Made by a program: the position numbers and the translations under genes. Positions 5,290 through 56,136 of a stretch of DNA of 64,000 nt are shown in pieces; within the stretch, counting starts at the first letter, position 1, and each line of letters starts with the position of its first letter. The stretch comes from Fibrobacterota bacterium (GTDB taxonomy: Bacteria > Fibrobacterota > Fibrobacteria > UBA11236), in assembly GCA_947482115.1 (NCBI GenBank), contig CANKII010000001.1:577840-641839 (forward strand). The letters are read 5' to 3'. A model generated the notes under the pieces. The model made no database searches. It worked only from the letters and a program-made list of their open reading frames with translations, and was not told where the DNA came from.

Positions 5290-5305
5290 CAGGGGAAAGA
5301 AAAAA

Positions 5306-10052: not shown

Positions 10053-10081
10053 GGGATGGGAAAAGGTAGTATTCAAGCCGT

Positions 10082-17479: not shown

Positions 17480-17490
17480 AATAGGATCGT

Positions 17491-20494: not shown

Positions 20495-20496
20495 GG

Positions 20497-20535: not shown

Positions 20536-20540
20536 CACGA

Positions 20541-20897
20541 TTAGGCTTCACGTTCTTTGATGCGCGAGGCCTTACCGGTCAAGTCACGCATGTAGAATAT
20601 GCGCGCACGGCGAACCTTGCCGAGGCGGCTCACCTTGATTCCCGCGATGCGCGGTGAATGCAAGGGGAAAATACGTTCGACGGCAACGTTGCTGGACATT
20701 TTACGCACCGTAAAGGTTGCGGAAACTCCGGCACCGCGACGTTGAATCACAACACCCGTGAAAGTTTGCACGCGTTCTTTGCTGCCTTCGATGACCTTGA
20801 AGTCAACGCTGATGGTATCGCCCGCGCGGAATTCCGGAATGTCGGTGCGCTGGGCGGCGTCGTTGTGGATTTTGGCTACTGTAGGATGCATGATCAA
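20541..20897 (-). CDS. rplS: 50S ribosomal protein L19
   Basis: A conserved L19 sequence; lies downstream of trmD. Confidence 0.9.
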
Positions 20898-26733: not shown

Positions 26734-26856
26734 CTTTCCAAAGCTTTCTTATTCCCAAGCTTTTTGCATCGATCCAGACGTGGAAAAAGTACAACAAAGT
26801 CCGGAGCCTTTGCTAATTTTCACCCCCTCACTTACTTCTTATCGAAAGGCCTTTCC

Positions 26857-27858: not shown

Positions 27859-27867
27859 CCTCTTTCC

Positions 27868-28464
27868 TTGAGGCTTGGGATGTTTCTCCGCGAGAAGGAA
27901 GATCGGCGCAATGCGTCGCTGCTGAACGCGGAGAACTCCCTGCTTCTGATCGTTGACTTTCAGGAAAAATTCATCGGTGCAGTTTCCGGCATGGAAGAAG
28001 TCGGGAAACGCATTGCAGTCTTGGCCAAAGCTGCCGCGCTGCTTCAAATCCCCATCATCGTTTCAGAACAGTATCCCAAAGGTCTGGGCCGCACTTTGTC
28101 AGAAATCCTGTCGGTGCTTCCGCAGGGAACCCCGGTGATTGAAAAACTTTCCTTCAGCGCGATGGATGTTCCGGAATGGGCCGAGGCGGTGCGTTCTTCC
28201 AAGCGCAATCAAATCATCCTCTGCGGAGTCGAGACTCACGTGTGCATTTTGCAAACTGCAATGGACTTGATCCAAAATTCGGATGGACAGGTTTATGTGG
28301 TGGAAGATGCTGTCGCTTCACGCAAGGTTTCCGACAAGGATGCTGCTTTGCGAAGGTTGGAAGCCAACGGCATTCAGGGTGTGACGGCGGAGATGGCCGT
28401 GTGCGAATGGCTGCGTCAGGCGGGCACGCCGAAGTTCAAAGAAATACAAGCGTTGATTAAATAG
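27868..28464 (+). CDS. Isochorismatase-family cysteine hydrolase
   Basis: LLLIVDFQEKF (catalytic Asp), a conserved Lys, and CGVETHVC (catalytic Cys). Confidence 0.65.
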   Translation: MRLGMFLREKEDRRNASLLNAENSLLLIVDFQEKFIGAVSGMEEVGKRIAVLAKAAALLQIPIIVSEQYPKGLGRTLSEILSVLPQGTPVIEKLSFSAMDVPEWAEAVRSSKRNQIILCGVETHVCILQTAMDLIQNSDGQVYVVEDAVASRKVSDKDAALRRLEANGIQGVTAEMAVCEWLRQAGTPKFKEIQALIK

Positions 28465-34618: not shown

Positions 34619-34654
34619 CCCGTAGGGGGCGCATTTTTGTTACGCCCCTTACGG
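34619..34654. terminator. Bidirectional terminator-like hairpin (cccgtagggggcg - catttttgtta - cgccccttacgg)
   Basis: Read directly; between the convergent ilvE and adhesin-gene stops. 12-bp arms with one mismatch and a T-rich loop. Confidence 0.45.
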
Positions 34655-37600: not shown

Positions 37601-39058
37601 GCTGTCCACGCCATTCTTGAGCCATTTACGATGGAGCGGAGCCGTGCCCACCGACACAATGCCAATCTTAACGGTTGTTCCCGTCAGTACGGTCTGTGTG
37701 ACAACCGGTTGCGAAAGAATACCGGAGGGGACATTCAAGCCCAAAGTCACACTGTCGCTTATCAGATCACCAAGGGAATTGTGTATGAACACCTGGTAAG
37801 TACCGACATCCGAGACCTGCGCATTGGGCAGGGTCAGTGTATCCGATGTACCCACGGTGTCTGTATTGTCCTTGAGCCAGGTGTAGGTCACCGGAGCCGT
37901 TCCTGTGGCCACAACCACAAATTGCGCCGTGTCTCCTGTGTTTACCATCAAACTCACCGGCTGCGAGGTGATTTCGGGTGGAGTATGCACGATCAACACC
38001 CCGGAGTCACTAGCCGCTACACCGGCAACGTTCGTGACCACGCACCGGTAATATCCAGAATCGGCACCCACCACACTGGCAATCACCAGCGTATCCTGAT
38101 TTCCAACGCTGTCCGCGTCATCTTTAGTCCAGACGTAATGGAGTGGACCCGTGCCTGTCGCTACTACACCGAATGTCACCGAAGAATCCGCATTCACGGT
38201 TTGAGTGACAACAGGCTGGGAAGTGATCAAAGGCGCCACATTCAAACCCAGAGTCACACTGGTACTCACTGTGTCCCCGGCCACGTTGTGTACCAGTACC
38301 TTGTAAGAACCCGTATCTACCGCCTGGACATTGGATAAAGTCAGGGTATCGAGCAATCCCACGGTATCCGTATTATTTTTCACCCACTGATACGTTAATG
38401 GCGCAGTACCGGTGGCCTGCACGCCAAATTTCACCGTCGAACCTGTATTGGCCATTTGACTCACAGGTTGGGAGCTAATCACCGGTGGTTTGTTCAGGGA
38501 TAATGCAGCGTTGCTGCTCGTCGTATCTCCGATGAGATTGCTCACAACAACCGAATAAAAACCCGTGTCGGATACCTGGACGTTGAACAAAGTAAGCGTG
38601 TCCGTATTCCCTACACTGTCTATATCATTAAAGAGCCATTTATACGTCAATGGAGCCGTACCCGCAGCGACCACGCCAAATTTCACCGTCGAACCCGCAT
38701 TCACCATTTGGCTCATGGGATCGGAGACAATGGACGGCCTTTCATTCACTGTAATGTTTATCGTGTCCGTGGTGGAGCCGGAATCATTACTGGCCGTGAC
38801 CACGTAATCCGTGGCAACCGATGCCGATTCGGGAGCTCCTGAAATGACTCCGCTGACGGAATCCAGCACCAAGCCCGCAGGCAGGGCTGGCGCTACCGAG
38901 TAAAGAAAGACAGTATCCGTTACCGTGGGAGTGTCAGGTGTAATCGGCAAATTTACGGTGTAAACAACCGGGGTCGTGTAAGTGAGATCGGAGGGGGACT
39001 CAAATGCAAAGCTCGAAACAGCGAGCATCAAGAGGGCTGGCAAACCTATCTTTTTCAT
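34649..39058 (-). CDS. Giant secreted surface protein of ~13 tandem Ig-like (I-set-like, GxYxC) domains, with putative-Ig/cadherin-like domains at both ends
   Basis: 1469 aa. Signal peptide MKKIGLPALLMLAVSSFA. An ~90-aa repeating unit alternates between two subtypes (...TYVWLKNNTDTV...DTGSYKV... and ...HYKWVKNGVDSVGN...DSGSYQC...). Several units are near-identical at both protein and DNA level. Confidence 0.7.
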   Translation of the reverse strand: MKKIGLPALLMLAVSSFAFESPSDLTYTTPVVYTVNLPITPDTPTVTDTVFLYSVAPALPAGLVLDSVSGVISGAPESASVATDYVVTASNDSGSTTDTINITVNERPSIVSDPMSQMVNAGSTVKFGVVAAGTAPLTYKWLFNDIDSVGNTDTLTLFNVQVSDTGFYSVVVSNLIGDTTSSNAALSLNKPPVISSQPVSQMANTGSTVKFGVQATGTAPLTYQWVKNNTDTVGLLDTLTLSNVQAVDTGSYKVLVHNVAGDTVSTSVTLGLNVAPLITSQPVVTQTVNADSSVTFGVVATGTGPLHYVWTKDDADSVGNQDTLVIASVVGADSGYYRCVVTNVAGVAASDSGVLIVHTPPEITSQPVSLMVNTGDTAQFVVVATGTAPVTYTWLKDNTDTVGTSDTLTLPNAQVSDVGTYQVFIHNSLGDLISDSVTLGLNVPSGILSQPVVTQTVLTGTTVKIGIVSVGTAPLHRKWLKNGVDSVGNQDTLTLSNVQLSDSGTYKCIVTNVAGIATSDSSILIVHALPVITSQSSSQMANAGSTVKFGVVVTGTTPLTYVWLKNNTDTVAFTDTLTILNFQAADTGSYRVFVHNIAGDTSSVSVTLGLNVAPNISSQPVTSQTVNSGVTVKLGVIATGTAPLHYKWVKNGVDSVGNLDTLTLVNVQGSDSGSYQCFVNNIAGVAPSNPGSLVVHYLPVILSQTSSQMANAGSTVKFGVVATGTAPLTYVWLKNNTDTVAFTDTLTILNFQASDTGSYQVFVHNIAGDTSSVSANLGLNILPSLTSQPVVSQTVNSGSTVKFGIGATGTNPLSYKWIHNGADSVGSSDTLTLINVQGSDSGSYQCFVTNVAGVAPSNSGTLHVQFVPVITSQPASQMVNSGSTATFGVVATGTAPLTYVWLKNNTDTVGSSDTLTLVNVQAADTGSYKVLIHNVAGDTSSVSVTLALNVAPSVTSQPASQVANETATVKFGVMASGTAPFSYKWLKNGVDSVGNLDTLTLVNVQGSDSGYYKCVVTNIAGVATSDSGVLTVNLAPVILSQPASQMVNAGSTVKFGVMAVGMDTLTYVWLKNNTDTVGTLDTLTLVNVQAADTGSYKVIVTNPLGDTTSNSVTLSLNVPASIVTQPIVSQTLVQGATAKFGVTASGTAPLFYKWLKNGVDSVGNLDTLTLVNVQGSDSGYYKCVVTNIAGVATSDSGVLQVLIAPMIAYVHNPAAYIKDSAITPDSVISTGGDVTHYALISPLPPGLSLDTLTGVISGTPTLQSLSADFSVIATGSGGSDTAVVNIGVFAIPSNFSYADDAAAYVLGLAITPNPPSITGFITHYSVSPAPPTGLVIDSLTGVLTGTPTTHQSFATDYTVTASNPLGSVQAIINITIVGVPTELSYIDDIPTYGRNIAISPPNVPTVQGIVTNYSILPALPTGITFDGTTGYIQGTPSVISPATNYTVTAQNPGGNTTAVIKIGVVNAGP

Positions 39059-39525: not shown

Positions 39526-41106
39526 ATGAAAAAGCAAGTCTTCATATACGACACCACTTTGCGGGACGGCAATCAAGCCAAGGGCCTTTCCCTTTCGCTG
39601 GAAGACAAGCTCACCATCGCGCGCAAGCTGGACGATTTCGGAGTCGACTATATCGAGGGTGGATGGCCCAATGCCACCAATCCCACCGACGTCGAATTCT
39701 TTGCCCGCGCCCGGAAGATGACCTGGAAGTACGCAAAGATTGCGGCATTCGGCAGCACCTGCCGTCCCAACGGAAAACCGGAGGAAGATGCGAGCTTGCG
39801 GCATTTGGTGGACACACAGGCTCCGGTGATCACTATTTTCGGCAAAAGCTGGGACTTGCATGTCACCGACGTGTTGCGTACGACGCTCGAGGAAAATCTC
39901 CGGATGATCCGCGACTCCGTGGCGTTCCTCAAAAAACACGCTTCCGAAGTGGTATACGATGCCGAACATTTCTTTGACGGCTACAAGGCCAATCCAGAAT
40001 ATGCCATGTCGACCTTACGTGCGGCAAAAGAAGGCGGTGCGGATTGTCTTGTGTTATGCGATACCAACGGTGGCATGGCCTTGTCGTGGGAACTCGAAGA
40101 AATCACCGCCTTGGTAAAACGAACTTTGGATGCACCGTTGGGAATCCATGTTCACAACGATACGGGCGTAGCCATCGCCAACAGCCTCGCTGCGGTACGC
40201 GCAGGTGCGACGCAAGTCCAGGGCGTATTCAACGGTTACGGCGAGCGCTGCGGTAACGCCAATCTCACCGTCATCGTTCCCGATTTGCAGCTTAAGATGG
40301 GCTACAAGGTGGTTACGGATGAACAACTGGGGAAACTGCGCAGCCTTAGCCTGAGCATCAGCGAAGTCGCCAATCTCACAGACGATATCCGTCAGCCGTA
40401 CGTGGGTGAAGCGGCCTTTGCCCACAAAGGCGGAGCGCATGTGGATGGAGTCATGAAAGTGGCCCGCAGTTTCGAGCACATCGATCCGGCATTGGTGGGA
40501 AATGCCCGCGACTTCATCGTGTCCAATCAAAGCGGCAGCAGTTTGATCTGGGACAAGATCCGCGCCATCGTTCCCGAAGTGGACAAGCGCAGCCCTGAAG
40601 TGGCCGCGATATTGGCCGAGGTAAAGCACAAAGAGGATTCCGGATATCACTTTGAAATCGCCGATGCGAGTTTTCAATTGCTGGCCCGCCGCCATCTGGG
40701 TTTGTTTCAAGATCGCTTTGAATTTCTTGGCTTCAAATCCACCGAGGAACGCAAAGAAGATGGAGGACTGCATTCGGAATTCAGCCTCAAGTTGAAAGTC
40801 GGAAATGAAGTCGAGGAAACCTCCGCTGTGGGAAATGGTCCGGTAGACGCGATGAACGCCGCCATGTTGAAAGGTTTGATCCGTTTCTTCCCGAACTTGA
40901 AATCCCTCGAATTAATCGACTTCAAGGTCCGGGTGTTGGACAACGCCAAAGGCACCGGGGCGACAGTTCGCGTCTGGACGCGCTATCTCGATCATGCGCA
41001 TCCGGAAATGGAACCTTACGGAACCATCGGTGTTTCCACCAACATCATCGAAGCGTCATGGCTGGCGTTGATGGACGGGATTCATTACAAGTTGATGCGG
41101 GGATAA
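39526..41106 (+). CDS. cimA: (R)-citramalate synthase (LeuA/CimA family, short 'LeuA_allo' type)
   Basis: 526 aa. IYDTTLRDGNQAKGLSLSLEDKLTIARKLDDFGVDYIEGGWP and a C-terminal LeuA-dimer-like regulatory domain. The length and the N-terminus fit CimA rather than LeuA. Confidence 0.75.
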   Translation: MKKQVFIYDTTLRDGNQAKGLSLSLEDKLTIARKLDDFGVDYIEGGWPNATNPTDVEFFARARKMTWKYAKIAAFGSTCRPNGKPEEDASLRHLVDTQAPVITIFGKSWDLHVTDVLRTTLEENLRMIRDSVAFLKKHASEVVYDAEHFFDGYKANPEYAMSTLRAAKEGGADCLVLCDTNGGMALSWELEEITALVKRTLDAPLGIHVHNDTGVAIANSLAAVRAGATQVQGVFNGYGERCGNANLTVIVPDLQLKMGYKVVTDEQLGKLRSLSLSISEVANLTDDIRQPYVGEAAFAHKGGAHVDGVMKVARSFEHIDPALVGNARDFIVSNQSGSSLIWDKIRAIVPEVDKRSPEVAAILAEVKHKEDSGYHFEIADASFQLLARRHLGLFQDRFEFLGFKSTEERKEDGGLHSEFSLKLKVGNEVEETSAVGNGPVDAMNAAMLKGLIRFFPNLKSLELIDFKVRVLDNAKGTGATVRVWTRYLDHAHPEMEPYGTIGVSTNIIEASWLALMDGIHYKLMRG

Positions 41107-41119
41107 AATCCCGCGCTCT

Positions 41120-42973
41120 TCAAGGCTGTGAAAATCGGAGTCTATCTAAATATTCCAGCGCACTGGGAAAACCCGGCTTGACTTTCAAAGCCTTGCGAAA
41201 CAGAATTTCTGCGGTTTTCATGTCGCCCAAGATGGCCCGATCCACTCCCTGATTCACATAAGACGTCGCATAATCCGCCTTGATTTCCCCAACGAAAAGA
41301 TGATTGCCATCCGGCAAAGGTCTGAAAGAAAATTCTTTCACGGGAAGAATGGCGACATTGGTGTCCCGGAAAAGACGCAGCACGAGACCCGAAGCGACAC
41401 CCTTATATCCTTCGGGTGAAACCTCCGGGGTGGCATAAACCGGCCGCTTCCCATAATTTGTTCCGATAAAACTTTGCGCAACTGAAATGAACCGGGATTT
41501 CAGAAGCATGCCGCTATTCAACCCGCGATCGAACGCATTCATTTCACGAATGGCGGTTTCCACTTCGGAACGCGAATTCTCAACCAGCCAGGGATAACGC
41601 TGCTCAAGCTGAGGAAAGTACCAGGCCGATTCCAAAAAGGATTTATCAATCACCGTCACATCGGGCCTCATTCCCTCCACCAACTGGAGATAATAAGCGG
41701 GCATGGTGAACTGCGGCCCCTGATCCGAAAAAATGATCGCTCCGGAATCCACGGAATCGAAAACATTTCTCACATAGTCCTCAACCGCATAATCACGGCT
41801 TTCGTCAATGGCACGGTAGTGGACACATAACGGGGAAAAAACCAGCATCAGACATAAAATCCGGGCAAACCGTAACAGCATCTTCCCGCGCATGATCTCC
41901 AGAGAGAAATAAATCCCGTATGCGATCCAAATTCCCGTCGTGACATAAGCCAACAGGTAATAGGAATCTATGTCGGTTATGCCATAATTACTGGAATAAG
42001 CCAGACAACAAAAAAAGAGCAGCGCCGAAAAAACCAGCATTCTTTTGAAGCGCCGGAAAAGCCCCACCAATCCAATAAATGCAAAGAACAGCGGAACATA
42101 TCCGAACTCTGACGGATAAGTTCTGAAAAAGTGCTGAAGGTGACCTTCAGCGGTATCGAATGAAGCAAACATGGCGGCATGATATTGTTTGCCGGTGACA
42201 TGCCACCAAAACTCCTGGAGGGTGACGGGATTGCCCCAATTCATCAAGGGATGTTGGGCGGCGCGCAACGGGAGATAGAGGTAAAGGGACAATCCGATGA
42301 GAAATGGAATCGCCGCCATCGCAATCTTGATCCATGAAGCGCGTGAAAAGCCCTGAGTCGCGAAGAAGAGGTAAAGAAACCCGGGGGCAAGCAGAATGGT
42401 CGTCATGTGATTGGTGAAACTCAATCCCAATATCAGGGCAAACAGATGCCATAACCGGTTTGAATGCGGATTTTCCAAAACCGAGCGGACAAAAAGCAGA
42501 ATCAACAGTGATAGAAAAAGGAGATGGAGGGGATAAACTTCAACCGAAAGCGCCTGGGACCAGAATGTACCGGAGAAGGCGAGAATTAATGCTGCAGATG
42601 CGGACGCGATTCTCGCGGAAGCTTCCCGAACGCTCCCTGCGACAGCGGATTTGTTTAAAAGCAGCCGCAGAAACAGCTGGTAAAAGAAAAAAACCGCAAT
42701 GGAACACAGAACCGCAGACATGAGGTTCAGCTTCCAAATGATTCGCCCCCCAATGGGAAGATGAGCGAACACCCAGCCCAAAAGAGTGAACAACGGATAA
42801 CCGGTGGGATGTGCAATACCCAATGTTGATGCAACCACCGCCAATTCCCCGCTGTCCATGGGCAGAACCGAGGGTGCAAGCGTGCTCAAATAGACGAGAA
42901 ATGCAACCAGCGAAAGGAGCAAGCCAACCCAAACGTCGCTTTGAAAAAATTTTAAGCGCTTTGGATCTCTCAT
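41120..42973 (-). CDS. DUF2723-type polytopic membrane protein (PMT/TMEM260-like GT-C glycosyltransferase fold) with a C-terminal TPR-like region
   Basis: 617 aa. About 11 TM helices in the N-terminal ~450 aa, a DUF2723-like N-terminus (LAPSVLPMDSGELA) and a soluble C-terminal domain. Confidence 0.55.
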   Translation of the reverse strand: MRDPKRLKFFQSDVWVGLLLSLVAFLVYLSTLAPSVLPMDSGELAVVASTLGIAHPTGYPLFTLLGWVFAHLPIGGRIIWKLNLMSAVLCSIAVFFFYQLFLRLLLNKSAVAGSVREASARIASASAALILAFSGTFWSQALSVEVYPLHLLFLSLLILLFVRSVLENPHSNRLWHLFALILGLSFTNHMTTILLAPGFLYLFFATQGFSRASWIKIAMAAIPFLIGLSLYLYLPLRAAQHPLMNWGNPVTLQEFWWHVTGKQYHAAMFASFDTAEGHLQHFFRTYPSEFGYVPLFFAFIGLVGLFRRFKRMLVFSALLFFCCLAYSSNYGITDIDSYYLLAYVTTGIWIAYGIYFSLEIMRGKMLLRFARILCLMLVFSPLCVHYRAIDESRDYAVEDYVRNVFDSVDSGAIIFSDQGPQFTMPAYYLQLVEGMRPDVTVIDKSFLESAWYFPQLEQRYPWLVENSRSEVETAIREMNAFDRGLNSGMLLKSRFISVAQSFIGTNYGKRPVYATPEVSPEGYKGVASGLVLRLFRDTNVAILPVKEFSFRPLPDGNHLFVGEIKADYATSYVNQGVDRAILGDMKTAEILFRKALKVKPGFPSALEYLDRLRFSQP

Positions 42974-43088
42974 ATTCAGAGAATCTTAACAAAACCGACT
43001 CGCCGCTTATATTGCTCTGGGAAAAAGAGCGGATTTTCAGAGCAATTTCAGAGCAGCCGTTCCCATTCGTGCGGGACTCCATTATTTT

Positions 43089-43928
43089 GTGGACACCATG
43101 AACACCGCGCCGGACATAGCCGGGTACACTGATTACCGGAAATATTTGCAGGACGCTTATGTCGCCCGTAAATCCTGGGACGGAAAATTTTCCCAACGAT
43201 TCATCAATCAAAAAATGGGAACCCGATCCTCCGGATGGTTTGCGGACGTCCTTGCCCGAAGGCAAAAACTCAAACCTCATCATGCAACCCAGATCGGCAC
43301 AATATTCAAGCTTGAATCCAGGGAGCGGGATTTTCTGAGGGTGCTCATTGAATTGGAGCAGGCCTCAACACCCGAAGAAAGAACCGCGGCGTATGACAAA
43401 TGGTTCAGTCTCAAGGGCATGCGCGAGGAAATAGTCTCGAAGGATCGTTTCAAATATTTTGAGCATTGGTACTATCCGGCCCTTCGCGAATTATTGACGC
43501 TAAAACCGTTTCAGGTAAATTACGCCGCCCTCTCCACATTGCTTTATCCCCCCATAAAACCCGCCCAGGCGAAGGAAGCCGTGGAGACCTTGATTCGGCT
43601 GGGACTTGTTTTTCCGGGAGCCCCTTCCCCCCTCCCCGTTCTCGTTAAGGACTCTTCAAGCAAAACAAATCACTGGCACAAGATCCTGAAATCGTACATG
43701 CAGCTTGCATTGCCCGCCCTGAAAAAATTTTCCAAGGAGGAGCGCAATTTCTCCTCTCTGACACTCACCTTTTCGCCGGAAGGATTGAAAAAGGCCGGTG
43801 ATGAAATTGCGGCCCTTCGCAGCAGACTTCTGATGCTGTCCGAGAAAGATCGGGATCGGGATCGGGTTTATCAATGCCTCTTTCAGGTCTTTCCACTGTC
43901 ATTACCGGTGGAGACCCAAGGTGATTGA
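43089..43928 (+). CDS. Hypothetical protein, TIGR02147-like (Fibrobacter-type paralogous family; possible HTH regulator)
   Basis: 279 aa. The N-terminal YTDYRKYLQDAY...FSQRF pattern matches my recollection of TIGR02147 members. The assignment is tentative. Confidence 0.35.
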   Translation: MDTMNTAPDIAGYTDYRKYLQDAYVARKSWDGKFSQRFINQKMGTRSSGWFADVLARRQKLKPHHATQIGTIFKLESRERDFLRVLIELEQASTPEERTAAYDKWFSLKGMREEIVSKDRFKYFEHWYYPALRELLTLKPFQVNYAALSTLLYPPIKPAQAKEAVETLIRLGLVFPGAPSPLPVLVKDSSSKTNHWHKILKSYMQLALPALKKFSKEERNFSSLTLTFSPEGLKKAGDEIAALRSRLLMLSEKDRDRDRVYQCLFQVFPLSLPVETQGD

Positions 43929-45234
43929 CCGGAAAAATATTTTCCAGGGCATCGCCTTGGCTGCGATGCTTTTGTTTTCCGCCTGCCAGTTTCTCAGCAA
44001 TGGCGGCACGGAAATCCCCAACGAGCTTACCGGTAACCTGTATCTTCAGGGTGGAATGCCATCGGCCTACACGGAAGTAATCCTGTATCCCGTGGATTAT
44101 GTTCCCGGAGATGCAGGCTCGATGGCGAAGCGAAGAATCACCCGAACAGACAGCACCGGCAGATTCCGCTTCAAAAACATCCCTGCAGGATGGTATAATG
44201 TATTCAGCCGTCAGGGTCTTCAAAATTCCATGGATAGCGTATTTGCCTTTTCCGATTCCATTACGCTTTCAAGTGGAACGCGGGAAATGCCACCCGACAC
44301 CTTGCGACATCCCGGCTCCCTGAGCGGCATCGTGCAACTGCGCGCGCAGGACGATCCCAGAACTGCAACGGTGCAATTGCTCGGAACCGATTATTCAGGT
44401 TCCGTCGATTCCAACGGGAGATTTCAGATTCCGCGCGTGGCGCAGGGCATTTACCCTGTACGGGTTATCACCACACTTCCGGATTATGCACCGGGTATTC
44501 AGCAGGTGACCGTACAGTCAGGCAGAAACGACACCTTGCCGGATATTCTCATCCTCAGCTATCCGAAGCATTTTACCATCAACAATTCCACCTCTGCTTT
44601 ATGGACTTTTGACATCCTCAGCAATACCGGTACGATTCAAGATGTCGTGAATGGCTTCCTCTTGACACCATCAAAACCGATGCCCTATGAAGCCACATCT
44701 TTTGGTTTCGCTGTGGCCATGAACGGGACGGGCCAGTACTTCGCCATTGAAAATCACCTGGAGTTGACAATCAGTGCCACGGGAAAGGTCACTTATGAAG
44801 CCCGCATTTATCTGGATCAATATCCGGCGGGTTCCTTTATGGAAGCGTCTTCAGTTATCAGCCTGAATCGGGACCTCAATCTCCAAATCAATTCGGATGG
44901 AAGCCTTCAAATCTGGACGAGGAAGCTGGATCTCACAGCAACCGCTTATGATTATATCCCGGTCAGCGCGCCGGGGGTCATTCCATTAAAACGCTGGGTG
45001 GATGTGGCGGTGGCTCTCGATCAAGGTGCGCATCAATGCTATGGCTATGTGGATGAAAAACCCGTTTCACTATCCGTGGGATTTGTGAATGCGGACCCCT
45101 TCGAGGTTTTAAAATCACGCCTGTTCGTCGGCAATGATTCCCTGAACAGTCAGCAATTCATCGGGAAGATCGACGAACTGAGGATTTCAACCAGCTTAGT
45201 CCTCGGAGCAGGCCTGCCCCTCGTCATTAAATGA
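43921..45234 (+). CDS. Secreted lipoprotein with two carboxypeptidase-regulatory-like beta-sandwich domains and a C-terminal LamG/concanavalin-A-like lectin domain
   Basis: Lipobox LLFSACQF. TDSTGRFRFKNIPAGWYNV and VDSNGRFQIPRVAQGIYPV are CarboxypepD_reg-like. The C-terminus has a ConA-like jellyroll signature (GKIDELRIS). Confidence 0.5.
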   Translation: MIDRKNIFQGIALAAMLLFSACQFLSNGGTEIPNELTGNLYLQGGMPSAYTEVILYPVDYVPGDAGSMAKRRITRTDSTGRFRFKNIPAGWYNVFSRQGLQNSMDSVFAFSDSITLSSGTREMPPDTLRHPGSLSGIVQLRAQDDPRTATVQLLGTDYSGSVDSNGRFQIPRVAQGIYPVRVITTLPDYAPGIQQVTVQSGRNDTLPDILILSYPKHFTINNSTSALWTFDILSNTGTIQDVVNGFLLTPSKPMPYEATSFGFAVAMNGTGQYFAIENHLELTISATGKVTYEARIYLDQYPAGSFMEASSVISLNRDLNLQINSDGSLQIWTRKLDLTATAYDYIPVSAPGVIPLKRWVDVAVALDQGAHQCYGYVDEKPVSLSVGFVNADPFEVLKSRLFVGNDSLNSQQFIGKIDELRISTSLVLGAGLPLVIK

Positions 45235-46110
45235 CCCATCGCAAATGGCCATGTAAATCCTGCCATTCTTCGCGGGCTGCAAATACACCTTCGACGGATT
45301 CGCAATAACCCCCTCCCCATCCACTTCCACATAACCACGCTCAAGTCGGTAGCTTTCACCGCTTTCAATTTCTGCGGAATCAAAGGGAACGAGCACATTG
45401 TTGGCCAGATGCCAAATATGAAGGGTAAAAGGTGTGTTGCCCGTGTTCAACATCCGTATCGTGTCTCCCCCCATATTCCAGTCTCTTACAGGCTCTGATG
45501 TAAAGGCTTTCATCCGTCCGAAATCCAATCCGTATTGGGACATGTCCACTTCCACCGCATCCGACCGGTAAAGTTTAAAGTCCAGGACTTTCGCAAACAC
45601 ATTGAATGAAACTTCCTGCGAAAGATTCAGAGTGTCTCCCTGTGCATCCGTGGTATTACCGGAAATATTGGCCTCCGCTGCATTATCCCCCATGGGAAGC
45701 AAACTGTCCGGCCCCAAACCATCCAAACGATTGCCGTGCACCACGTTCAGTGTGATGACTTGAAGTATCGGGGCATTTTTGGCGGGTTGCAAAACCTTGA
45801 TGGTGGACGGACTGAAGTAAAAATGCGGATTGTTCGTGGTCAAATGGATGTTGCGAATGTCCACGTCTCCCGTGTTTTTCAGAACAAAAAATCTTTGGAT
45901 GGAACTTTTCGCGTCGCCCAAATCAAATTCAAGGGCTTTCGAACCCGTATCCTGAACCGGAATTTTTTCAACAGCTTTTTTTGCGGATGCCAGAGAAGCA
46001 AACTGGAGATGACCGGGCCGGAGTCCGCCATTTGCATTGGTGAGACTGGCATCCTTGCTCATGCAAGCAACAAAAACCGACACCAGCCCAAAGGCAAAAC
46101 AACGTCTCAC
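45196..46110 (-). CDS. Lipoprotein of unknown function, paralogue A
   Basis: Lipobox VFVACMSK. Clear paralogy to the adjacent gene (LTTNNPxFYFSPSxI...LPMGxNxAxAxxSGxTxD). Confidence 0.5.
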   Translation of the reverse strand: MRRCFAFGLVSVFVACMSKDASLTNANGGLRPGHLQFASLASAKKAVEKIPVQDTGSKALEFDLGDAKSSIQRFFVLKNTGDVDIRNIHLTTNNPHFYFSPSTIKVLQPAKNAPILQVITLNVVHGNRLDGLGPDSLLPMGDNAAEANISGNTTDAQGDTLNLSQEVSFNVFAKVLDFKLYRSDAVEVDMSQYGLDFGRMKAFTSEPVRDWNMGGDTIRMLNTGNTPFTLHIWHLANNVLVPFDSAEIESGESYRLERGYVEVDGEGVIANPSKVYLQPAKNGRIYMAICDGSFNDEGQACSED

Positions 46111-46132
46111 ACAAATCCCTTCGAAAGTTTAA

Positions 46133-47074
46133 CTACCAGCCCGAGGGGTAAAAGATTCCGGTAAATTTACCATTAGTCGCAGAGTTGACGCTGGCCTGCA
46201 GCCACAACTTTTCGGATTTGGCGACAACACCATGCCCGTCGATTTGAATCAGCGGTGCGCCGGGTTTCCCGTCGAAGGATACCACCATGTTGCATCGTGG
46301 GGCGACCTCCATCGAATCTGCTGCAACCGCGATATAGTTGGCATCATTGTAAAAAGCCTTAACCTTGAAACTCGTGTTTCCAGAATTGAAAATCCTCAAT
46401 GTGGGGCTACTCAGGGGTTTTTTGCCCGTATAGAATCCGCGCACCGCATCGCCGGTAATGCCACCATACCCCCCGAAATTGAAATTGTTGCGTGACATGT
46501 CCACAAGCGACGAGTCAAACGAATAAAACTCTACATCAAAGATTTTCGCGTAAACCTTAAATTGAGCCAACTGGGAAATGGCGATCGAGTCGTGATGGCT
46601 ATCCGAGGTCGTTCCGGACACTGAAGCCGTCGCGATATTTGCGCCCATGGGCAGTTGAGACGCCGGGCCCACTCCGTTGATCTGGGTGCCGTGAATGACA
46701 CAGAGTTTGACCAGTTGCAGCAATGAGGATGTTTTAGCAGGTGCTAAGATGTCAATTTCCGAGGGACTGAAATAAAAATTAGGGTTGTTCGTGGTCAACT
46801 TGACATGCTTCACGTCGCAATCCCCGGTGTTTTGCAACAGGAAGTATTGCTGAATGGAACTGTTGGCCGTATCGAGGTCAAATGTGTACGTGGTTGAAGA
46901 ACCCACCGTCTTCAAAGAACTGGTGACCTTGGCCAACCCTTTCATGGAAACCAGTTGGATCTGTCCCGGTTGTGAATCACTTGAAATGGGTGCGGTAACG
47001 GAATCTTCCTTGTTCATGCAAGCAGTAAAGCCCAAGACCAGCGCCAAAATGAGAATCTGTTTCAACTGTTTCAT
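46133..47074 (-). CDS. Lipoprotein of unknown function, paralogue B
   Basis: Lipobox LGFTACMNK. Tandem paralogue of 45196..46110. Confidence 0.5.
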   Translation of the reverse strand: MKQLKQILILALVLGFTACMNKEDSVTAPISSDSQPGQIQLVSMKGLAKVTSSLKTVGSSTTYTFDLDTANSSIQQYFLLQNTGDCDVKHVKLTTNNPNFYFSPSEIDILAPAKTSSLLQLVKLCVIHGTQINGVGPASQLPMGANIATASVSGTTSDSHHDSIAISQLAQFKVYAKIFDVEFYSFDSSLVDMSRNNFNFGGYGGITGDAVRGFYTGKKPLSSPTLRIFNSGNTSFKVKAFYNDANYIAVAADSMEVAPRCNMVVSFDGKPGAPLIQIDGHGVVAKSEKLWLQASVNSATNGKFTGIFYPSGW

Positions 47075-47215
47075 AAGTAACCTCCGAGTTGGATACCCTT
47101 TAGTTTAGGAGCCGAAAAACCTCGCGTCAAGAGAAATCACAGTTTCGGACAAATAACCGCTCTGTAAATAAGAGCGTTACAGGGGAAATGTTTTTAAAAA
47201 GGCCGGATTTGCTTT

Positions 47216-49762
47216 TCAATCCAAAGTATCGTCCGAAACCCTGCCAAATCCGGAGGGGAATTTAATCGCTAAAAATCCCAGTACTCCAAACGCAATCCAT
47301 GTGATGTACAGCCAGACTTTGCGATAAGGATCCCACACGCCTTCGACTTCAATTGTATGCTCGCCAGCCGGAACTTTTAGAACAATTTCATAGGTAGCAC
47401 CGGGATAAAACGGAGTTTTTTGCCCGTCAATGCTTGTCTGGAGATAACTGTAATAGCTAGCTGCAAGCCGTACATAAGCTGGCTGGTTCAGTCGGATGCG
47501 ATAGTGATATTTCTTGGGATAGACTTTATAATCCAATAAATTCAAAACTGGACTTCCAGAAGCAGGTAATGATTCAAATGATGTGCCGGCTTGAACAAAG
47601 ATTCTTTTGGCAGTTGAATGCTCATAATCCAGATTCATGTCCGAAAAAAGTTGTTTTAATTCCGAGGGGTCTTCCTCATTTTTCCATGCATGAGACTCTA
47701 TACCTGAGCTGGCGATAACTGGAGTGTGATAGCGGAACCGCCCATCAATGTAAACGTCGTCTGTCTCAAGATCTTCCAACTTCGTGGTATCGAAAGTGTG
47801 AATTGGATCACCATGCAATACAACATCACGAAAATTGTTCAGGTAAAAATAATTGAGCGAGAAACTATCTGGAAACACATGTGGCTCTTTAAAATGGGTC
47901 ATTAACCAGCCGTAAAATGTTTGCCCAAAGATGGAACGTCGCGGACCTGTTTCTGGTTGGATTCCCAGTTCAGATGGCATCCCTATTCTTCTAACCATAG
48001 AGCCGGGTATTTGTCCGCTATAATCCCCCGCCTTTTCTTCTTCAATAAAAAAGTAATACGGAACATTTTCCCCTTTATCCAGATATCTTTTGCTTTCAGC
48101 TTTATAACGTTCCATGAAATTCCACTTGTCTTGAGTTGCGGCCTTGAAGGGAAACTGGAATGTTGTGGCTCCAACATCGAGCGCTAAAAAAACAAGCGGG
48201 ATAATACCCCAAAGATTTTGAAACCTTGGAAATTTTTCACTCGCCCACCGCCGCCAGATTAATATTCCGAAGCCGGAACCAGCCGACATAAAAAAAACCA
48301 AAAAGGCCTGATAGCGATGATCCGGAAAAATTCGTAGGAATGTGAGGCCAGGAACCCTAACCAGTTCGAAGTAGAAAAACACTACGACAATGCTTCCGAT
48401 GAGAAAAACGGAAATAAATTTCAAGGCATTCGAATCCAAATCAAATCTTCTTGATAGTCCAAACAGTCCTAAGAGGGCAAACAACAGTGGGACCAAACCC
48501 AAGTATCTGTTGAAAAAACTTGCCTTGGCAATTTTTTCGGCTTTGGAACCTTCCCCAATAAACCAGTGGCCATTGTACCATTGATACAGAACCTCGGGAC
48601 GTATCCTCATTTCAGGGTTAGCTTGAATGGCCTCAAAATTTCGGGCGGTATGATGTGCAGCAGATTCATTTTTTTGGACTATGGGCGCAGTGACCATTCC
48701 TGCTAGAATGAATATCTCAAGACCAAACGAAATTGCGAAAAGGATAAAAGATCTCTTTTTCTGAATACGGAGGGATCGGGTGGCTAGCCGGAAAAGGCAG
48801 TAAAGAGTGACAAGCCCCCAGACCATAGCCCCCCACACAAAGTGAGTGTAAACGATACCAGCCAGAGGAATTGCACACAAAAGAAAATAGCGTAACCGAA
48901 ATCTGCTTTCTGCCAATCCAAGTTCGAAAAAATAAAACGGCCACGGAAGGCATGCATATACGATGGATAATGGAAGTTGTCCAATACCGAAAACGTGATA
49001 AAAGTGCCAATAATTCAAGCAAAATGCGCAGCTCGAAAAAATCGCGGCATAGCGACTTCGCGTCAGTTTTTCGATCCAAAGAAACATCCCGATTCCAGAG
49101 GCTGTAAAAGCCACCCATAGAATTAATTTGACACCAAAATGCGAATTTGTGAGAAATGCCAAGACTCCAGCAAGAACTGAAAACAGGTTACCGATGTATT
49201 GCCTGCAATTCCATCCGGAATAGAACAAGGTGGAATAATTTGCGAAAGCACCCATTTTAAGAGAACGAGTAAATTCGTCAATACCCGCAACAAAAAATAT
49301 GTGATCAACAAAGAATGGAAACTCGCCTGGATGCAGAGAAAATCGGCAGAATGAAGCAAACAGAAATGAAAGACATAGGGCTTTTTTCCAAGTGCTATTA
49401 CCGATTATCTCCCATGTCCCTTCAAGCACTCGAAATCGAGCTTGCAAGTAAACCATGTATATGGGTATACCGATCAAAAGGACCGCTAAAAGTTCGTCTA
49501 AGCTGTCAAATCGAATGGGGGAATTTGGATTGGATAGGTAGGTAGTGAAGTCGGTAAAAGAACCAAATACAGTGTTTACTGCGAGAACCTGACTGAACTT
49601 CGTAAGCGTCACAAACTGAAAAACCCAAAGCAAAAAACACCAGCCTACGAGTGCCAATAAAAAGTGAAAACGACGATCCGATATGACTAGAATCTTTGAA
49701 CTTTCTGAGACTTGACTTTGGCTCAAAGCTCGCTGGATTTTAGTTCGCTTTTTACTTCCCAT
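47216..49762 (-). CDS. YfhO-like GT-C-fold polytopic membrane protein (probable envelope glycosyltransferase), lower GC
   Basis: 848 aa. About 13 N-terminal TM helices, a large extracytoplasmic C-terminal domain and a final C-terminal TM helix (VWLYITWIAFGVLGFLAIKF); this topology is characteristic of YfhO-family proteins. AT-richer than its surroundings. Confidence 0.45.
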   Translation of the reverse strand: MGSKKRTKIQRALSQSQVSESSKILVISDRRFHFLLALVGWCFLLWVFQFVTLTKFSQVLAVNTVFGSFTDFTTYLSNPNSPIRFDSLDELLAVLLIGIPIYMVYLQARFRVLEGTWEIIGNSTWKKALCLSFLFASFCRFSLHPGEFPFFVDHIFFVAGIDEFTRSLKMGAFANYSTLFYSGWNCRQYIGNLFSVLAGVLAFLTNSHFGVKLILWVAFTASGIGMFLWIEKLTRSRYAAIFSSCAFCLNYWHFYHVFGIGQLPLSIVYACLPWPFYFFELGLAESRFRLRYFLLCAIPLAGIVYTHFVWGAMVWGLVTLYCLFRLATRSLRIQKKRSFILFAISFGLEIFILAGMVTAPIVQKNESAAHHTARNFEAIQANPEMRIRPEVLYQWYNGHWFIGEGSKAEKIAKASFFNRYLGLVPLLFALLGLFGLSRRFDLDSNALKFISVFLIGSIVVVFFYFELVRVPGLTFLRIFPDHRYQAFLVFFMSAGSGFGILIWRRWASEKFPRFQNLWGIIPLVFLALDVGATTFQFPFKAATQDKWNFMERYKAESKRYLDKGENVPYYFFIEEEKAGDYSGQIPGSMVRRIGMPSELGIQPETGPRRSIFGQTFYGWLMTHFKEPHVFPDSFSLNYFYLNNFRDVVLHGDPIHTFDTTKLEDLETDDVYIDGRFRYHTPVIASSGIESHAWKNEEDPSELKQLFSDMNLDYEHSTAKRIFVQAGTSFESLPASGSPVLNLLDYKVYPKKYHYRIRLNQPAYVRLAASYYSYLQTSIDGQKTPFYPGATYEIVLKVPAGEHTIEVEGVWDPYRKVWLYITWIAFGVLGFLAIKFPSGFGRVSDDTLD

Positions 49763-49783
49763 AATTTGTTAATCCTAACAAAA

Positions 49784-52762
49784 TCACCGCCCCGAACCCC
49801 GAGTCAACAACGGCATAAGATACGGCTTCAACGTCACAAGTATGCTCACCGGCAACGCGCTGGTGAAACCATAATTTGCTGCCTTCGCCCCTTCCACATG
49901 CGCCGTCAACGTTCCAAAAAAACGATCGCCCAGATAGAACACAAAGGTTGCCGTGCGATTCACCACGCGTGACTCGACAAGCTCCCCTCCCCTGCCGAAG
50001 GTTTCAAACCGCTGATCTCCGGTCCCCGTTTTTCCGCCGAGCGGTAGAATCGTTCCATCAGGAAGTTTGAAGGCATCCCTGCCGCGCGCAGCCGTGCCAT
50101 TCTCCACCACGTCCAGCAGCGCCTCCTTTGTCACACGGCAAAGCTCCGGCGGCAACAGCGTATCCACCGGTGTTTCACCGGGTGCAAAAACAGTTTCATA
50201 CGGAGTTCCTGCAGCAAAATGCAAACGCTGCACCATGCCGGATGGGTAATGTTTTCCGTCGTTCAACAAAATCCCCACCAGCTCCGCAAGGGAGTTGGGC
50301 CGGTCTCCTGAAGCGCCAATGGAGGTTCCCAGCGAGGGAACGAGCGAATTGAACGGATAGCCCACGCGCTGCCACGCCCGGTGGATTTCCTCGAAGGCTT
50401 CCATCTCCTGAATGGCGCGAATGCGGGCATCCTGCCGGTCGTGATGATGTGTTTTGAAAAGCCACGAATATGTGTCGCGAACCGGCTGTTGCGAAGCCGC
50501 ATCCACTTCCTTCCAACTGGCATGATTATGCGATTTCAAATAACTCGCCAGCCACAATTCCAGCGGATGAACCCCGGCGACGAATCCATAATCCGCCAGA
50601 CTCCAATCCCTGTTGGAGTTTCGGGAATAAATATTCTCCAGACTGCCTGTGGGATGCAGGGAATCGCCCAGCGTATCCCGGATGAAACTCGCAAAAGATT
50701 TCGCCGAGTAATCCGGATAAAGATACCGGTACGCTGCCGCCTGACGCCGCAGACCGCGGCGACTCAAGCCTTGAAAGAAAACATCCAGCGCGGAATCCGA
50801 TGAAAGTCCCTTGTATTTGCGGAAGAACTTGGCCAGAAAAACCTTGCCTTCCTTGTCCGCAAACTTTTCCAGATAATGTTGCCGTTCCGGTGTGTCTCCG
50901 GAATCAAATACCATGGCTTTGGAAATTGGAGCATCGGCGATGTGAAAGTTCACAACATCCCGCATGAGCCGGACAAAAACCAGATTGATGGAATGACGCA
51001 GGGCGTCGCGCACGGTGAAGGAACGGTTGTTGTCCTCCGGATGAAAGTTCGCGAAAGTTTGTTCCCCTCCTCCCGTGAAAAAAGTCTCACGCGGATTCGC
51101 GGAGTATTTGCGTTCCATGCCGGCTTCGAGAAGGGCCGTCAGCGAAGTGTCCTTGGCCGTGGCCAAATCATTTGCAACCCAGCGGCTCAGGACATCCTGC
51201 GCATGAGCCGCCGTGTCTCTCAGCGCAGCGGGAGACAATCCCGCCCATTGATGATGGAGACCGGTGAGGATTTCCAGATAATGAACCAAGGTCCTCAGCT
51301 TGGCCGTCGATCCCAAATCCAGCTTCACCTGTTCATTGATATCAAGAGGTTGTTCGTAATTGTCCGCCTGAACGCGCAAAAGATTCCGCCCGGCGGATGT
51401 CTCGAACAAAGTGAAGCTGTAAATCACCTGATTGGGATCGCCCTTGTCCAAAAGGCGGAAGCCGCGAAGTCCCGCACTGTCGAGAAAACGAGTGTCGCTC
51501 AAACGCTTCAGGGTTTTCACCACCTGCGCCTGAACATTTCCGTCCAAAGTGGTGGAGGCCGTAAGATCCATCCGATCGAGATCGTAAAGCCTCTGTACTC
51601 CAAGAAGATGATTGAGCCGGTTGCGCACCGCATTGATGGCCTTGCGCCCGGTAAAGTCTGCGGGAATATCGTCATCTGATCGCAGCATCAATTTCGGTTT
51701 CGCCGCCAACGCTGCGTCACGCATCCCGGGCGACAGGATTCCTTCCTCAGCCAGTAAACGCACATAACTGTCGCCGATGGAATACAACGCTTCGGGACGC
51801 TGCAACAAATAATCCGAAGGACGCCGGTGGGCGATGAACAATTGCAAAGCCTTGCGGTATTCCAACCCGCGCCGGGCCATATCTTTTCCATGCAACGCGC
51901 TGTTCAACGTGTCTACGGGCGTGCTGTACCAAGCCGCAAGCCCGTCACCCAATCCGTTCACCTCGCCATATCCCGGAATCGCAGCAAGGGGAACCGTGTT
52001 CACATATTGCAGCAGGATGCGCTTGCGGGCCGTCAAAGTATTCTCTCCACCGAGATAGGCGCGCAAGGACGCGGAAAGCATTTGCCCGATTTTGTCGGTG
52101 CGCGTCGAAGTGCGTCCTTCACTGGAGTGGCGGTACTTTTCGATTTGAGTTGCAAGAGTGCTGCCCCCCGCAGCACCCGAGGGAAGCCCCAACTTTTTCT
52201 TCGTTTGTTCCGAGATCGCCTTTCCAAAACGAATCCATTCCACGGCGGGATTGGTGTAGGGATGCGCGGAGTCCAACAGATCCCGGTTCTCAATGAACAG
52301 GAGTGTGTTCGCTATTTCCGAAGGAATCGAATCAAAGTCCGGATAAATGCGCTGGGGGTACAGGGCCGAGTAAAGAACTTTTCCGCCGCGATCCAGGATG
52401 CGAAGCCCGGCCTGCATTTTTTCAGGATACGGCGCGGGCATTCCGGCGCTTGTCCAGCGCATCAACTCGGGAGAAAACCGGGTTTGCGATTCGATGTAAT
52501 ATCCCTGTTCGCGCAAAGTCGCCGCGAAAGCGGGAAGTTGCACATAACCCCGGCGCAAATCCTCAGGCCCTTTGAATGGGAAAACCACGTTGGAACTCAG
52601 GCCGTCTTCCAGTGAATAAGTCAACCTTTGCGCCCAGCGGGTGAACAGCCATGCCTGCACCCGGGAAGTTCGCGCTTCCCAAACGAGAATCGCAGCGAGC
52701 AACAGCAACAAAACGGCGATACCGGCGAGAAATATTTTCAGGAATTTCAGGAAGGGGGGCAT
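49784..52762 (-). CDS. Class A penicillin-binding protein (PBP1C-like; transglycosylase + transpeptidase)
   Basis: 992 aa. N-terminal TM anchor, a glycosyltransferase-51-like region (LLFIENRDLL) and transpeptidase motifs SxxK (GSTAKL), SxN (HSINL) and KTG (GGKTGTG). Confidence 0.7.
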   Translation of the reverse strand: MPPFLKFLKIFLAGIAVLLLLLAAILVWEARTSRVQAWLFTRWAQRLTYSLEDGLSSNVVFPFKGPEDLRRGYVQLPAFAATLREQGYYIESQTRFSPELMRWTSAGMPAPYPEKMQAGLRILDRGGKVLYSALYPQRIYPDFDSIPSEIANTLLFIENRDLLDSAHPYTNPAVEWIRFGKAISEQTKKKLGLPSGAAGGSTLATQIEKYRHSSEGRTSTRTDKIGQMLSASLRAYLGGENTLTARKRILLQYVNTVPLAAIPGYGEVNGLGDGLAAWYSTPVDTLNSALHGKDMARRGLEYRKALQLFIAHRRPSDYLLQRPEALYSIGDSYVRLLAEEGILSPGMRDAALAAKPKLMLRSDDDIPADFTGRKAINAVRNRLNHLLGVQRLYDLDRMDLTASTTLDGNVQAQVVKTLKRLSDTRFLDSAGLRGFRLLDKGDPNQVIYSFTLFETSAGRNLLRVQADNYEQPLDINEQVKLDLGSTAKLRTLVHYLEILTGLHHQWAGLSPAALRDTAAHAQDVLSRWVANDLATAKDTSLTALLEAGMERKYSANPRETFFTGGGEQTFANFHPEDNNRSFTVRDALRHSINLVFVRLMRDVVNFHIADAPISKAMVFDSGDTPERQHYLEKFADKEGKVFLAKFFRKYKGLSSDSALDVFFQGLSRRGLRRQAAAYRYLYPDYSAKSFASFIRDTLGDSLHPTGSLENIYSRNSNRDWSLADYGFVAGVHPLELWLASYLKSHNHASWKEVDAASQQPVRDTYSWLFKTHHHDRQDARIRAIQEMEAFEEIHRAWQRVGYPFNSLVPSLGTSIGASGDRPNSLAELVGILLNDGKHYPSGMVQRLHFAAGTPYETVFAPGETPVDTLLPPELCRVTKEALLDVVENGTAARGRDAFKLPDGTILPLGGKTGTGDQRFETFGRGGELVESRVVNRTATFVFYLGDRFFGTLTAHVEGAKAANYGFTSALPVSILVTLKPYLMPLLTRGSGR

Positions 52763-52812: not shown

Positions 52813-53361
52813 ATGCCCATCAAAACATCCGAAGACACCGAGGACATTCAAAGCCTGCCGGCAGGGGTCCGAATCATTTCCCTTCTGGCAGGTGTGATTC
52901 TGATGGTGCTAGGATGGAAATCGCTGGTGCCGGATTACCAGCTCTTTCACAAGCTCACCCACATGGATCAGGCATACCTGCCCACTCCGGGTAAAATCCT
53001 GCAGGTGAACATCCGCCGCGACACCGCCGCCACCGGGGATAAATGCTATCCCGATGTGCTGTTCGAATATTTCGTGGATGGGAAAAGCATTTGGGGCTGG
53101 AGGTTTTCCTACGAAGATGAACCCCGTCACCGGGCCTATTGGGAAAAACGCTTAAGCCGGTATCATGTGGGAGACACGGCCACGGCCTATGTCAATCCGA
53201 AGGATCCCAAGGATTCCTTCGTGGAAAAAAAGACCGACAGTTTGCTGCGACCTTTGCTGAAAATTCTTCTCGCCGCCGCATTCATGGCGTTCGGAGTATT
53301 CCTCTTCGCCATCCCAGTAATTGCTTTTTTCGGAATGCTGTTCCGATCCAGAAAATCTTAG
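52813..53361 (+). CDS. DUF3592-like membrane protein
   Basis: 182 aa. An N-terminal TM helix, a central beta-rich domain and a C-terminal TM helix, as in the DUF3592 architecture. Confidence 0.5.
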   Translation: MPIKTSEDTEDIQSLPAGVRIISLLAGVILMVLGWKSLVPDYQLFHKLTHMDQAYLPTPGKILQVNIRRDTAATGDKCYPDVLFEYFVDGKSIWGWRFSYEDEPRHRAYWEKRLSRYHVGDTATAYVNPKDPKDSFVEKKTDSLLRPLLKILLAAAFMAFGVFLFAIPVIAFFGMLFRSRKS

Positions 53362-56007: not shown

Positions 56008-56136
56008 ATCTCCCCCTCCCCAAGTCATTATGAATATTACGCCTGTCTTGACGATTATGATCCATGAAAAACGAAAAAATCGTTCGTAAAATTCGAACAG
56101 TGAAATTCTGACCCTCTAGAGGGTTAAATTGAACCC

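Follow-up and report, generated by a model that had tools for sequence, protein, structure and literature searches.

Whether membrane glycosyltransferases encoded beside exported proteins act on those neighbors, or have come to lie there piece by piece, is the question raised by a six-gene locus of an uncultured member of the Fibrobacterota. The locus lies in a stretch of 64,000 nucleotides (assembly GCA_947482115.1, contig CANKII010000001.1, positions 577,840 to 641,839 of the forward strand), which we call the window and whose numbering is used throughout. A preliminary description listed, in order, a TMEM260-like protein, a TIGR02147-like putative regulator, a lipoprotein with CarboxypepD_reg and LamG domains, two tandem paralogous lipoproteins (here B, then A) and a YfhO-like membrane protein of 848 aa, and proposed that they form an accessory O-glycosylation module. 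Our open reading frame (ORF) calls and profile searches returned the same six genes in the same order, but the module itself found little support: the genes are split over several transcription units, no genes for a sugar donor were found, no gene pair recurs elsewhere, the TMEM260-like copy has lost an aspartate that is catalytic in its human homolog, and the glycosylation sequons of the lipoproteins are not special. With slightly better than even confidence, we read the locus as a lineage-specific patchwork islet accreted at a variable spot downstream of a penicillin-binding protein (PBP) gene, and not as a co-evolved glycosylation operon.

The limits of the islet come from its nearest relative, the locus L090, a single 5.4-kb contig. 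By blastn, L090 positions 1-4426 align with window positions 54263-49846 and positions 4488-5360 with window positions 41112-40240, leaving window positions 41113..49845 (~8.7 kb, with no single coding strand) without a counterpart. This interval is an indel relative to L090, and its limits are those of the block first described. Genes for TrxR (87% identity to the window), DUF3592 (62%), the PBP (70%) and cimA (87.5%, a fragment abutting the PBP gene) are contiguous in L090, and the flanks are collinear; the PBP and cimA genes there are convergent, overlap by 4 nt and have nothing in between. Since these flanking core genes are directly adjacent in L090, which also holds the closest PBP relative that we found (P0159, 69% identical), the block is accessory. 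The corresponding genes of the window, both outside the islet, are cimA (39526..41106, plus strand; citramalate synthase, TIGR00977 E=2.3e-206) and a gene for a class-A-PBP-like protein of 992 aa (49784..52762, minus strand; PF00912 E=1.4e-13). In the direction of PBP transcription the block lies downstream of this gene and not directly upstream, as had been stated. Behind the PBP of one more distant relative we found GerE, DUF4912, a short-chain dehydrogenase and DUF6629, while in others a small unknown protein comes next, ahead of surface proteins of cadherin-like or PKD type and an FHA-SLT protein. What lies behind the PBP thus differs from one distant relative to another, and the position is variable in this lineage. 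The small unknown proteins were also compared with the islet lipoproteins as possible kin and proved unrelated. The species is also represented by contigs in GCA_943322435.2 and in other samples.

Strand arrangement and intergenic signals point to three or four transcription units on both strands, the promoter and terminator predictions among these signals being weak hints that were not enriched over shuffled sequence. The first unit would be the solitary TMEM260-like GT-C gene (41120..42973, minus strand, 617 aa), which is apparently monocistronic. The second, divergent from it, would be a bicistron of the TIGR02147/DUF4423 gene (43089..43928, plus strand, 279 aa) and the LamG lipoprotein gene (43921..45234, plus strand, 437 aa), which overlap by 8 nt. 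The paralogous Ig-like lipoproteins B (45196..46110, minus strand, 304 aa) and A (46133..47074, minus strand, 313 aa) would form a third unit with its own promoter-like site; this site and a terminator-like site lie just upstream of paralog A (47176-47102), and the genes for paralog B and the LamG lipoprotein are convergent, their 3′ ends overlapping by 39 nt (45196-45234). The last would be the gene for the 848-aa protein (47216..49762, minus strand), a rare PTPS_related-like GT-C relative of foreign composition that starts 21 nt after the PBP stop.

The intergenic region of 115 nt between the divergent TMEM260-like and TIGR02147 genes (42974..43088) holds two of the three exact copies of TTCAGAGC in the window (at 43036 and 43047, 11 nt apart), a copy with one mismatch at 42975, a 14-nt inverted repeat and a promoter-like site on the plus strand (42986-43013), and may act as an operator. 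The TIGR02147 assignment of the preliminary description is firm: the protein matches this Fibrobacter succinogenes paralogous family over its full length and far over the cut-off (183.6 bits against 50, E=5e-54), as well as DUF4423 (PF14394; 84.5 bits against 30, E=9.6e-24). It has no hydrophobic segment, is predicted to be cytoplasmic and has no homolog in the PDB; a regulatory role is our inference.

Composition separates the islet genes as well. Over 48 window genes the mean GC is 0.521 and the mean GC at third codon positions (GC3) 0.578. The 848-aa gene departs from both, with a GC of 0.426 (z=-4.5) and a GC3 of 0.408 (z=-4.1) against 42 other window genes, and shows the top synonymous-codon divergence among the long genes of the window. 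It is the sole islet outlier and the only compositionally foreign gene; its 65%-identical ortholog is also below its core neighbors in GC (0.547 against 0.58-0.64). The other five have a GC of 0.49-0.51 (z -0.6 to -1.5) and a GC3 of 0.54-0.61 (z -1.0 to +0.5). Their GC3 is ordinary, so their AT-excess sits at codon positions 1-2, that is, in amino-acid composition. The earlier impression of an AT-rich locus is thus right in that the block is more AT-rich than its flanks (cimA 0.541, PBP 0.552), but a single gene is the real outlier. In the contig of the 65%-identical ortholog (L001), we also observed that this ortholog is split into ORFs of 677 and 142 aa (10001-12446), probably by a frameshift in the long-read assembly, and borders a cluster of lower GC3 (15042-21270) with GT2, sulfotransferase, PqqD and NTP_transf_5 genes.

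A third line of evidence is the lack of recurrence. Around TMEM260-like homologs we looked for the other islet genes within 10 kb and found none at any of 80 loci. No islet pairing recurs either in four loci of relatives of the 848-aa protein, each with a different gene upstream, or in the two longer loci of the lipoprotein family (L087 and L088), neither of which has a GT-C neighbor; in the third lipoprotein-family locus the contig, 4 kb long, breaks off inside the gene.

Both GT-C proteins would face the periplasm and draw on polyprenyl-phosphate-linked sugars whose synthesis is encoded elsewhere in the genome. Neither the block nor the rest of the scanned window ORFs (48, every ORF treated as a gene) yielded a polyprenyl-phosphate sugar synthase of the CsbB/GtrB/Dpm1 type or a GtrA/GtcA flippase. 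The sole GT2 in the window, a membrane glycosyltransferase (10492-11706, plus strand), is GT21-like and lies 30 kb away.

Human TMEM260 is a protein O-mannosyltransferase for Ig-like IPT domains. The homology of the first islet gene product to it is clear: the protein scored 132.4 bits against PF11028 (cut-off 24.2, E=2e-38), and phmmer against the PDB aligned residues 23-462 with residues 35-483 of the human structure (9rql_A, E=3.5e-27), confirming the DUF2723/TMEM260-like GT-C call. The homology extends over the GT-C core as well as the luminal Rossmann-like domain, and the overall plan, with a polytopic N-terminal part, a soluble domain and a short helical tail, is shared. The tails appear to differ, the human protein having a five-helix TPR and the window copy about one TPR-like hairpin. 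The TPR tail of the preliminary description found no match to any TPR model at E<=0.01 in the Pfam scan; its last ~45 residues have at most a pattern resembling a single TPR-like hairpin, which is conserved in the A4 consensus. As the window copy is bacterial, its donor would be a bactoprenol-linked sugar.

The activity of the human enzyme requires D52, H67, R264 and Y267, which structures place, with R355, at the Dol-P-Man site; mutation of R355 merely lowers activity, while D441 is the catalytic base and D441A is inactive (preprint 10.64898/2026.03.17.711096). We compared these positions through the phmmer alignment and an alignment of 22 sequences (the window protein and 21 bacterial homologs). 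D40, H55 and Y264 align with the donor-site residues D52, H67 and Y267; the first two are invariant in 22/22 sequences, and the Tyr position is Y in 17/22 and F in 5/22. Neither human Arg has an Arg match in the window copy: R264 aligns with G261, adjacent to K262, and R355 with S337 in a gapped, low-confidence stretch, and at both positions the bacterial homologs likewise differ from the human enzyme. The D441 position departs further, since the window protein has Q418-G419-P420 where 20 of the 21 bacterial homologs have Q-W-D and the remaining one (L006) Q-W-E, so that Pro replaces the catalytic-base Asp; the closest acidic residue is D417, three residues earlier. A second conserved Asp is replaced by Gly, the NYD motif (human NLD) being NYG. 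A 100% identical TMEM260-like sequence is present in three contigs assembled independently from other samples (L002-L004), so QGP and NYG are not assembly errors. Judged by these residues, the window copy is a diverged paralog, either mechanistically altered, with D417 as a possible substitute, or inactive. Its donor-binding residues are kept and its acceptor-activating Asp is gone, and the mechanism or acceptor may have changed if transfer was not lost altogether.

This loss makes it possible, as a tentative minority explanation, that the TMEM260-like gene is a degenerating or neofunctionalized paralog, a pseudoenzyme that has lost the ancestral transfer, in an islet that would be a store of redundant envelope genes. 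Both lost aspartates are conserved from bacteria to human, and the inactivity of human D441A agrees with such a reading. Its closest genomic relative, L006 (contig OMJM01000019.1, 6-5308, plus strand), has three tandem TMEM260-like paralogs, two of them canonical (NYD, QWD) and one intermediate (NYN, QWE) toward the NYG and QGP of the window. The genomic setting fits too. The 80 homolog loci encode proteins 31-55% identical to ours, and at least 74 of them are labelled as Ignavibacteriota, Bacteroidota, Chlorobi-type or Kryptoniota metagenome-assembled genomes (MAGs); glnE lies directly upstream in 38/80 (confirmed against PDB 1v4a, E=6e-48), and in 15-31 loci the gene is followed by others read as nusG, rplK, rplA, rplJ, rplL and rpoB. 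The gene thus has a conserved core context in Ignavibacteriota and Bacteroidota MAGs, unlike the window copy. Several points pull the other way: the frame is intact and full length, with the same sequence in L002-L004, the donor-site residues are strictly kept, D417 might substitute for the lost Asp, and that bacterial enzymes use the same base as the human one is an assumption by analogy.

The dedicated module depends on the lipoproteins as much as on the enzymes. In this account, one or both GT-C enzymes move lipid-linked sugars onto the neighboring lipoproteins under the control of the TIGR02147 protein, and we consider it unlikely. It draws on the homology of the TMEM260-like protein to a proven protein O-mannosyltransferase with its donor-site residues kept, on the presence or absence of the six genes as a block, on the repeated motif in the divergent control region, and on the position of three exported lipoproteins, each with 4-6 sequons, between two enzymes. 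The lipoproteins themselves are well supported. The LamG protein has both domains first assigned to it (Laminin_G_3, PF13385 E=2.1e-11; CarboxypepD_reg, PF13620 E=2.6e-11), and paralogs A and B, with a predicted two-domain Ig-like organization, are 38% identical (E=2e-68), an alignment that also backs the longer GTG start of paralog B. Lipidation is predicted for all three from lipoboxes at residues 19-22 (F-S-A-C, LamG), 13-16 (F-V-A-C, paralog B) and 16-19 (F-T-A-C, paralog A).

Paralogs A and B belong to a family with 346 cluster representatives at E<=1e-3, in which the lipobox Cys (44/44 aligned members) and the motifs FxLxNxG and NxGN are invariant, and a weak HYDIN/VesB-like Ig match occurs in 12/44. 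Searches of the family and of the LamG protein against the PDB gave chance-level matches only, and an AlphaFold2 model of lipoprotein A from a two-sequence alignment was too poor to use (pLDDT 34.6). A metagenome scan with the alignment of the two paralogs found no relatives; the 44-member alignment was too diverse for scanning, and a 10-member alignment recovered the three loci mentioned above. We also observed a weak DUF6242 match in proteins near members of the family (L087 8358-9596, L088 5188-6474) and once in the window (17491-18513, minus strand).

For glycosylation itself, we compared the number of Bacteroidota sequons, D-(S/T)-(A/I/L/V/M/T), with that expected from shuffled residues, in a small sample drawn from this window only. 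Ten exported proteins have 48 sequons against ~13.9 expected (~3.5-fold, totals summed per protein), whereas 27 cytoplasmic proteins have 25 against ~21.9 (~1.1-fold), the same contrast as in Bacteroidota O-glycosylation. The LamG lipoprotein has 6 (1.8 expected), paralog A 4 (1.2) and paralog B 4 (1.0), and the 44 members of their family together 135 against 55 expected (2.45-fold), with D68-T69-A70 of paralog A as the best-kept site. The BamD-like TPR lipoprotein (11703-13562, minus strand) has 10 (1.0 expected) and the flanking PBP 9 (2.9). The three lipoproteins are plausible glycoproteins, but probably of an organism-wide, Bacteroidota-type sequon-directed system that would also act on other exported proteins, and probably not dedicated substrates of the neighboring GT-C enzymes; their sequon content does not exceed that of unrelated exported proteins. 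Fibrobacterota share the sequon enrichment, and the transferase (OTase) of the general O-glycosylation system of Bacteroidota is still undiscovered (PMC12871550); membership of the islet in that system therefore cannot be claimed. The islet also differs from the Bacteroidota LFG locus, having neither an LFG-like set of cytoplasmic glycosyltransferases nor a Wzx flippase.

Against a dedicated module stand the absence of any recurring gene pair in 80 + 4 + 3 related loci, the three or four transcription units, the donor synthase and flippase not found in the block, the missing catalytic-base Asp, a sequon density that the BamD-like lipoprotein and the PBP equal or exceed, and the different compositional histories of the two GT-C genes. 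No test of conservation or completeness supports it, and its standing is weak. Profile searches did support one GT-C assignment directly, composition is not uniform and synteny with L090 is broken, and we regard the module as weakened and not refuted.

The second GT-C assignment took a longer route. The 848-aa polytopic protein has no Pfam or NCBIfam match even at E<=10, and neither it nor its relatives nor their consensus matches PF09586, the YfhO family, at that threshold; the YfhO-like call was thus not borne out. The consensus likewise found no match in Pfam, the family profile none in the PDB, and hhalign gave a probability of 3% against the TMEM260-like profile. The family is very rare, with five homologs (clusters) among 5.8 billion proteins, and a repeat protein search with the A1 profile gained just one further sequence. 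Two of the five relatives exceed the PF10131 gathering threshold of 26.4 bits, at 35.8 bits for P0003 (46% identical to the window protein) and 36.9 bits for P0004 (25% identical, aligned over 93% of the query at E=8e-34), over profile positions 1-317, the membrane core; the window protein and its two closest relatives do not reach it. PF10131 (PTPS_related) is a family of unknown function listed in the Pfam GT-C clan CL0111 (PMC7801869). Membership of the 848-aa protein in the GT-C superfamily is indirect but reasonable because its homologs match a family of this clan, and we would place it there by transitive homology, through PF10131 rather than YfhO. Of the two GT-C enzymes first described, the TMEM260-like one is therefore firm and this one indirect.

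The likeness to YfhO is one of size and plan and of a shared Pfam clan reached through PF10131: the window protein has about nine or more membrane-spanning stretches in its N-terminal part (~9 hydrophobic segments in the prediction), then a large soluble region, predicted to be extracytoplasmic, and one more transmembrane helix at its C-terminal end. Two aspartates, D89 and D153, do not vary across the five family members. YfhO works with CsbB/GtrB and GtcA in the teichoic-acid glycosylation of Firmicutes; no CsbB/GtrB-type GT2 and no GtcA/GtrA flippase lies near the 848-aa gene, and we know of no description of teichoic acids for the diderm Fibrobacterota.

Many bacterial GT-C enzymes (YfhO, ArnT, Emb, Aft, O-antigen ligases and polymerases) have glycans or lipids as their targets, for instance teichoic acids in the case of YfhO and lipid A in that of ArnT, and the GT-C proteins of the islet could by this parallel decorate non-protein envelope polymers, the PTPS_related-like enzyme modifying a cell-wall or outer-membrane glycan or glycolipid and the lipoproteins being unrelated to either. 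The unknown function of PF10131 leaves room for such a role, and the 848-aa gene is probably co-transcribed with the class-A-PBP-like gene, the 21-nt gap lacking a terminator-like site but containing AGGA as ribosome-binding site. We consider this quite unlikely, as the adjacency is unique to this genome (the four homologs with informative contigs have four different upstream neighbors, namely the PBP, DUF6629, FtsH and a small HTH protein beside PS decarboxylase, a fifth contig being uninformative on context), the PBP genes of relatives lack such a partner, and neither acceptor nor donor can be inferred from sequence.

Gene identities, the indel, the compositional data and the absence of recurrence are direct observations, while what we say on enzyme activities, donors, acceptors and regulation is interpretation. 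The patchwork reading has its own weak points, which we set together here. The comparison with L090 shows the six islet genes coming or going as one, which would fit the gain or loss of a functional unit as well, and two GT-C genes beside three exported lipoproteins make a suggestive neighborhood. With so small a number of loci for the 848-aa family (four) and the lipoprotein family (three), linkage may have been missed. The native-like GC3 of five of the six genes suggests old residents or arrival from a similar genome. An AlphaFold2 model of the 848-aa protein from a five-sequence alignment was unusable (pLDDT 40.7), leaving its GT-C fold unmodelled. The direction of change, insertion or deletion, cannot be fixed because more distant relatives do not have cimA beside the PBP. 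This bears on the horizontal acquisition first suggested, which is partly upheld: absence from L090 agrees with it, composition is mixed, with one foreign gene out of six, and signatures of mobility are lacking, with no tRNA and no Rfam match in scans of the window, no integrase or transposase domain above threshold in the Pfam scan of its genes and, in a search for target-site duplications at the junctions, a longest shared word of 9 nt (a chance match) and no flanking repeat.

Further observations concern the flanks and the rest of the window. The PBP is of a long class-A-like form (~1000-1200 aa) with a clear transglycosylase and a sub-threshold transpeptidase domain (E=0.0027); its family is large, 6897 of 8000 scored candidates reaching E<=1e-20, with ~48-69% identity among the 120 matches listed. 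A divergent gene for a DUF3592 membrane protein (52813-53361, plus strand) pairs with the PBP in 5/6 relatives examined, the upstream side being unresolved in L089. Two genes from the TMEM260-like gene lies one for a secreted protein of 1469 aa (34649-39058, minus strand) with at least 13 eukaryote-type Ig_3/I-set domains (PF13927 E=4.5e-142) and He_PIG. We considered this protein as a substrate of the TMEM260-like enzyme and found no support, as an Ig-repeat neighbor occurs in 1/80 TMEM260-like loci; its 40 apparent sequons we take to be largely the canonical Ig-fold motif D-S/T-A/G-x-Y-x-C. A tandem pair of HupE/UreJ genes and two ORFs of fair length (402 and 528 aa), neither with a Pfam match, have the joint coordinates 25541-26733, 26839-28047 and 54442-56028 (all minus strand). 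The N-terminus of the 528-aa product is signal-like, and its sequence contains 5 sequons. Most of the remaining window genes are housekeeping genes.

In conclusion, the islet is an ordinary variable envelope-gene block in an uncultured Fibrobacterota genome, holding new members of known families and documenting a very rare, compositionally foreign GT-C relative, and the region downstream of the conserved pair of DUF3592 and class A PBP genes is a variable spot in this lineage. The idea worth carrying forward is family-wide and not local to the islet: TMEM260-like GT-C proteins could act in the periplasm as the transferase adding the initial sugar in the sequon-directed general O-glycosylation of Bacteroidota and sister phyla, the islet copy being a diverged accessory paralog with a changed acceptor. 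We offer this as speculation of low probability. It is consistent with the phyla in which at least 74 of the 80 homologs were found and with the core site behind glnE in 38 of them. A 2025 review that calls the transferase 'undiscovered' and reports the motif enrichment in Fibrobacterota suggests seeking homologs of eukaryotic O-mannosylation enzymes (PMC12871550), and our literature search found no work linking TMEM260 or DUF2723 with Bacteroid*. TMEM260-like proteins would thus be a concrete candidate family for the missing general O-glycosylation transferase of the FCB-group superphylum.

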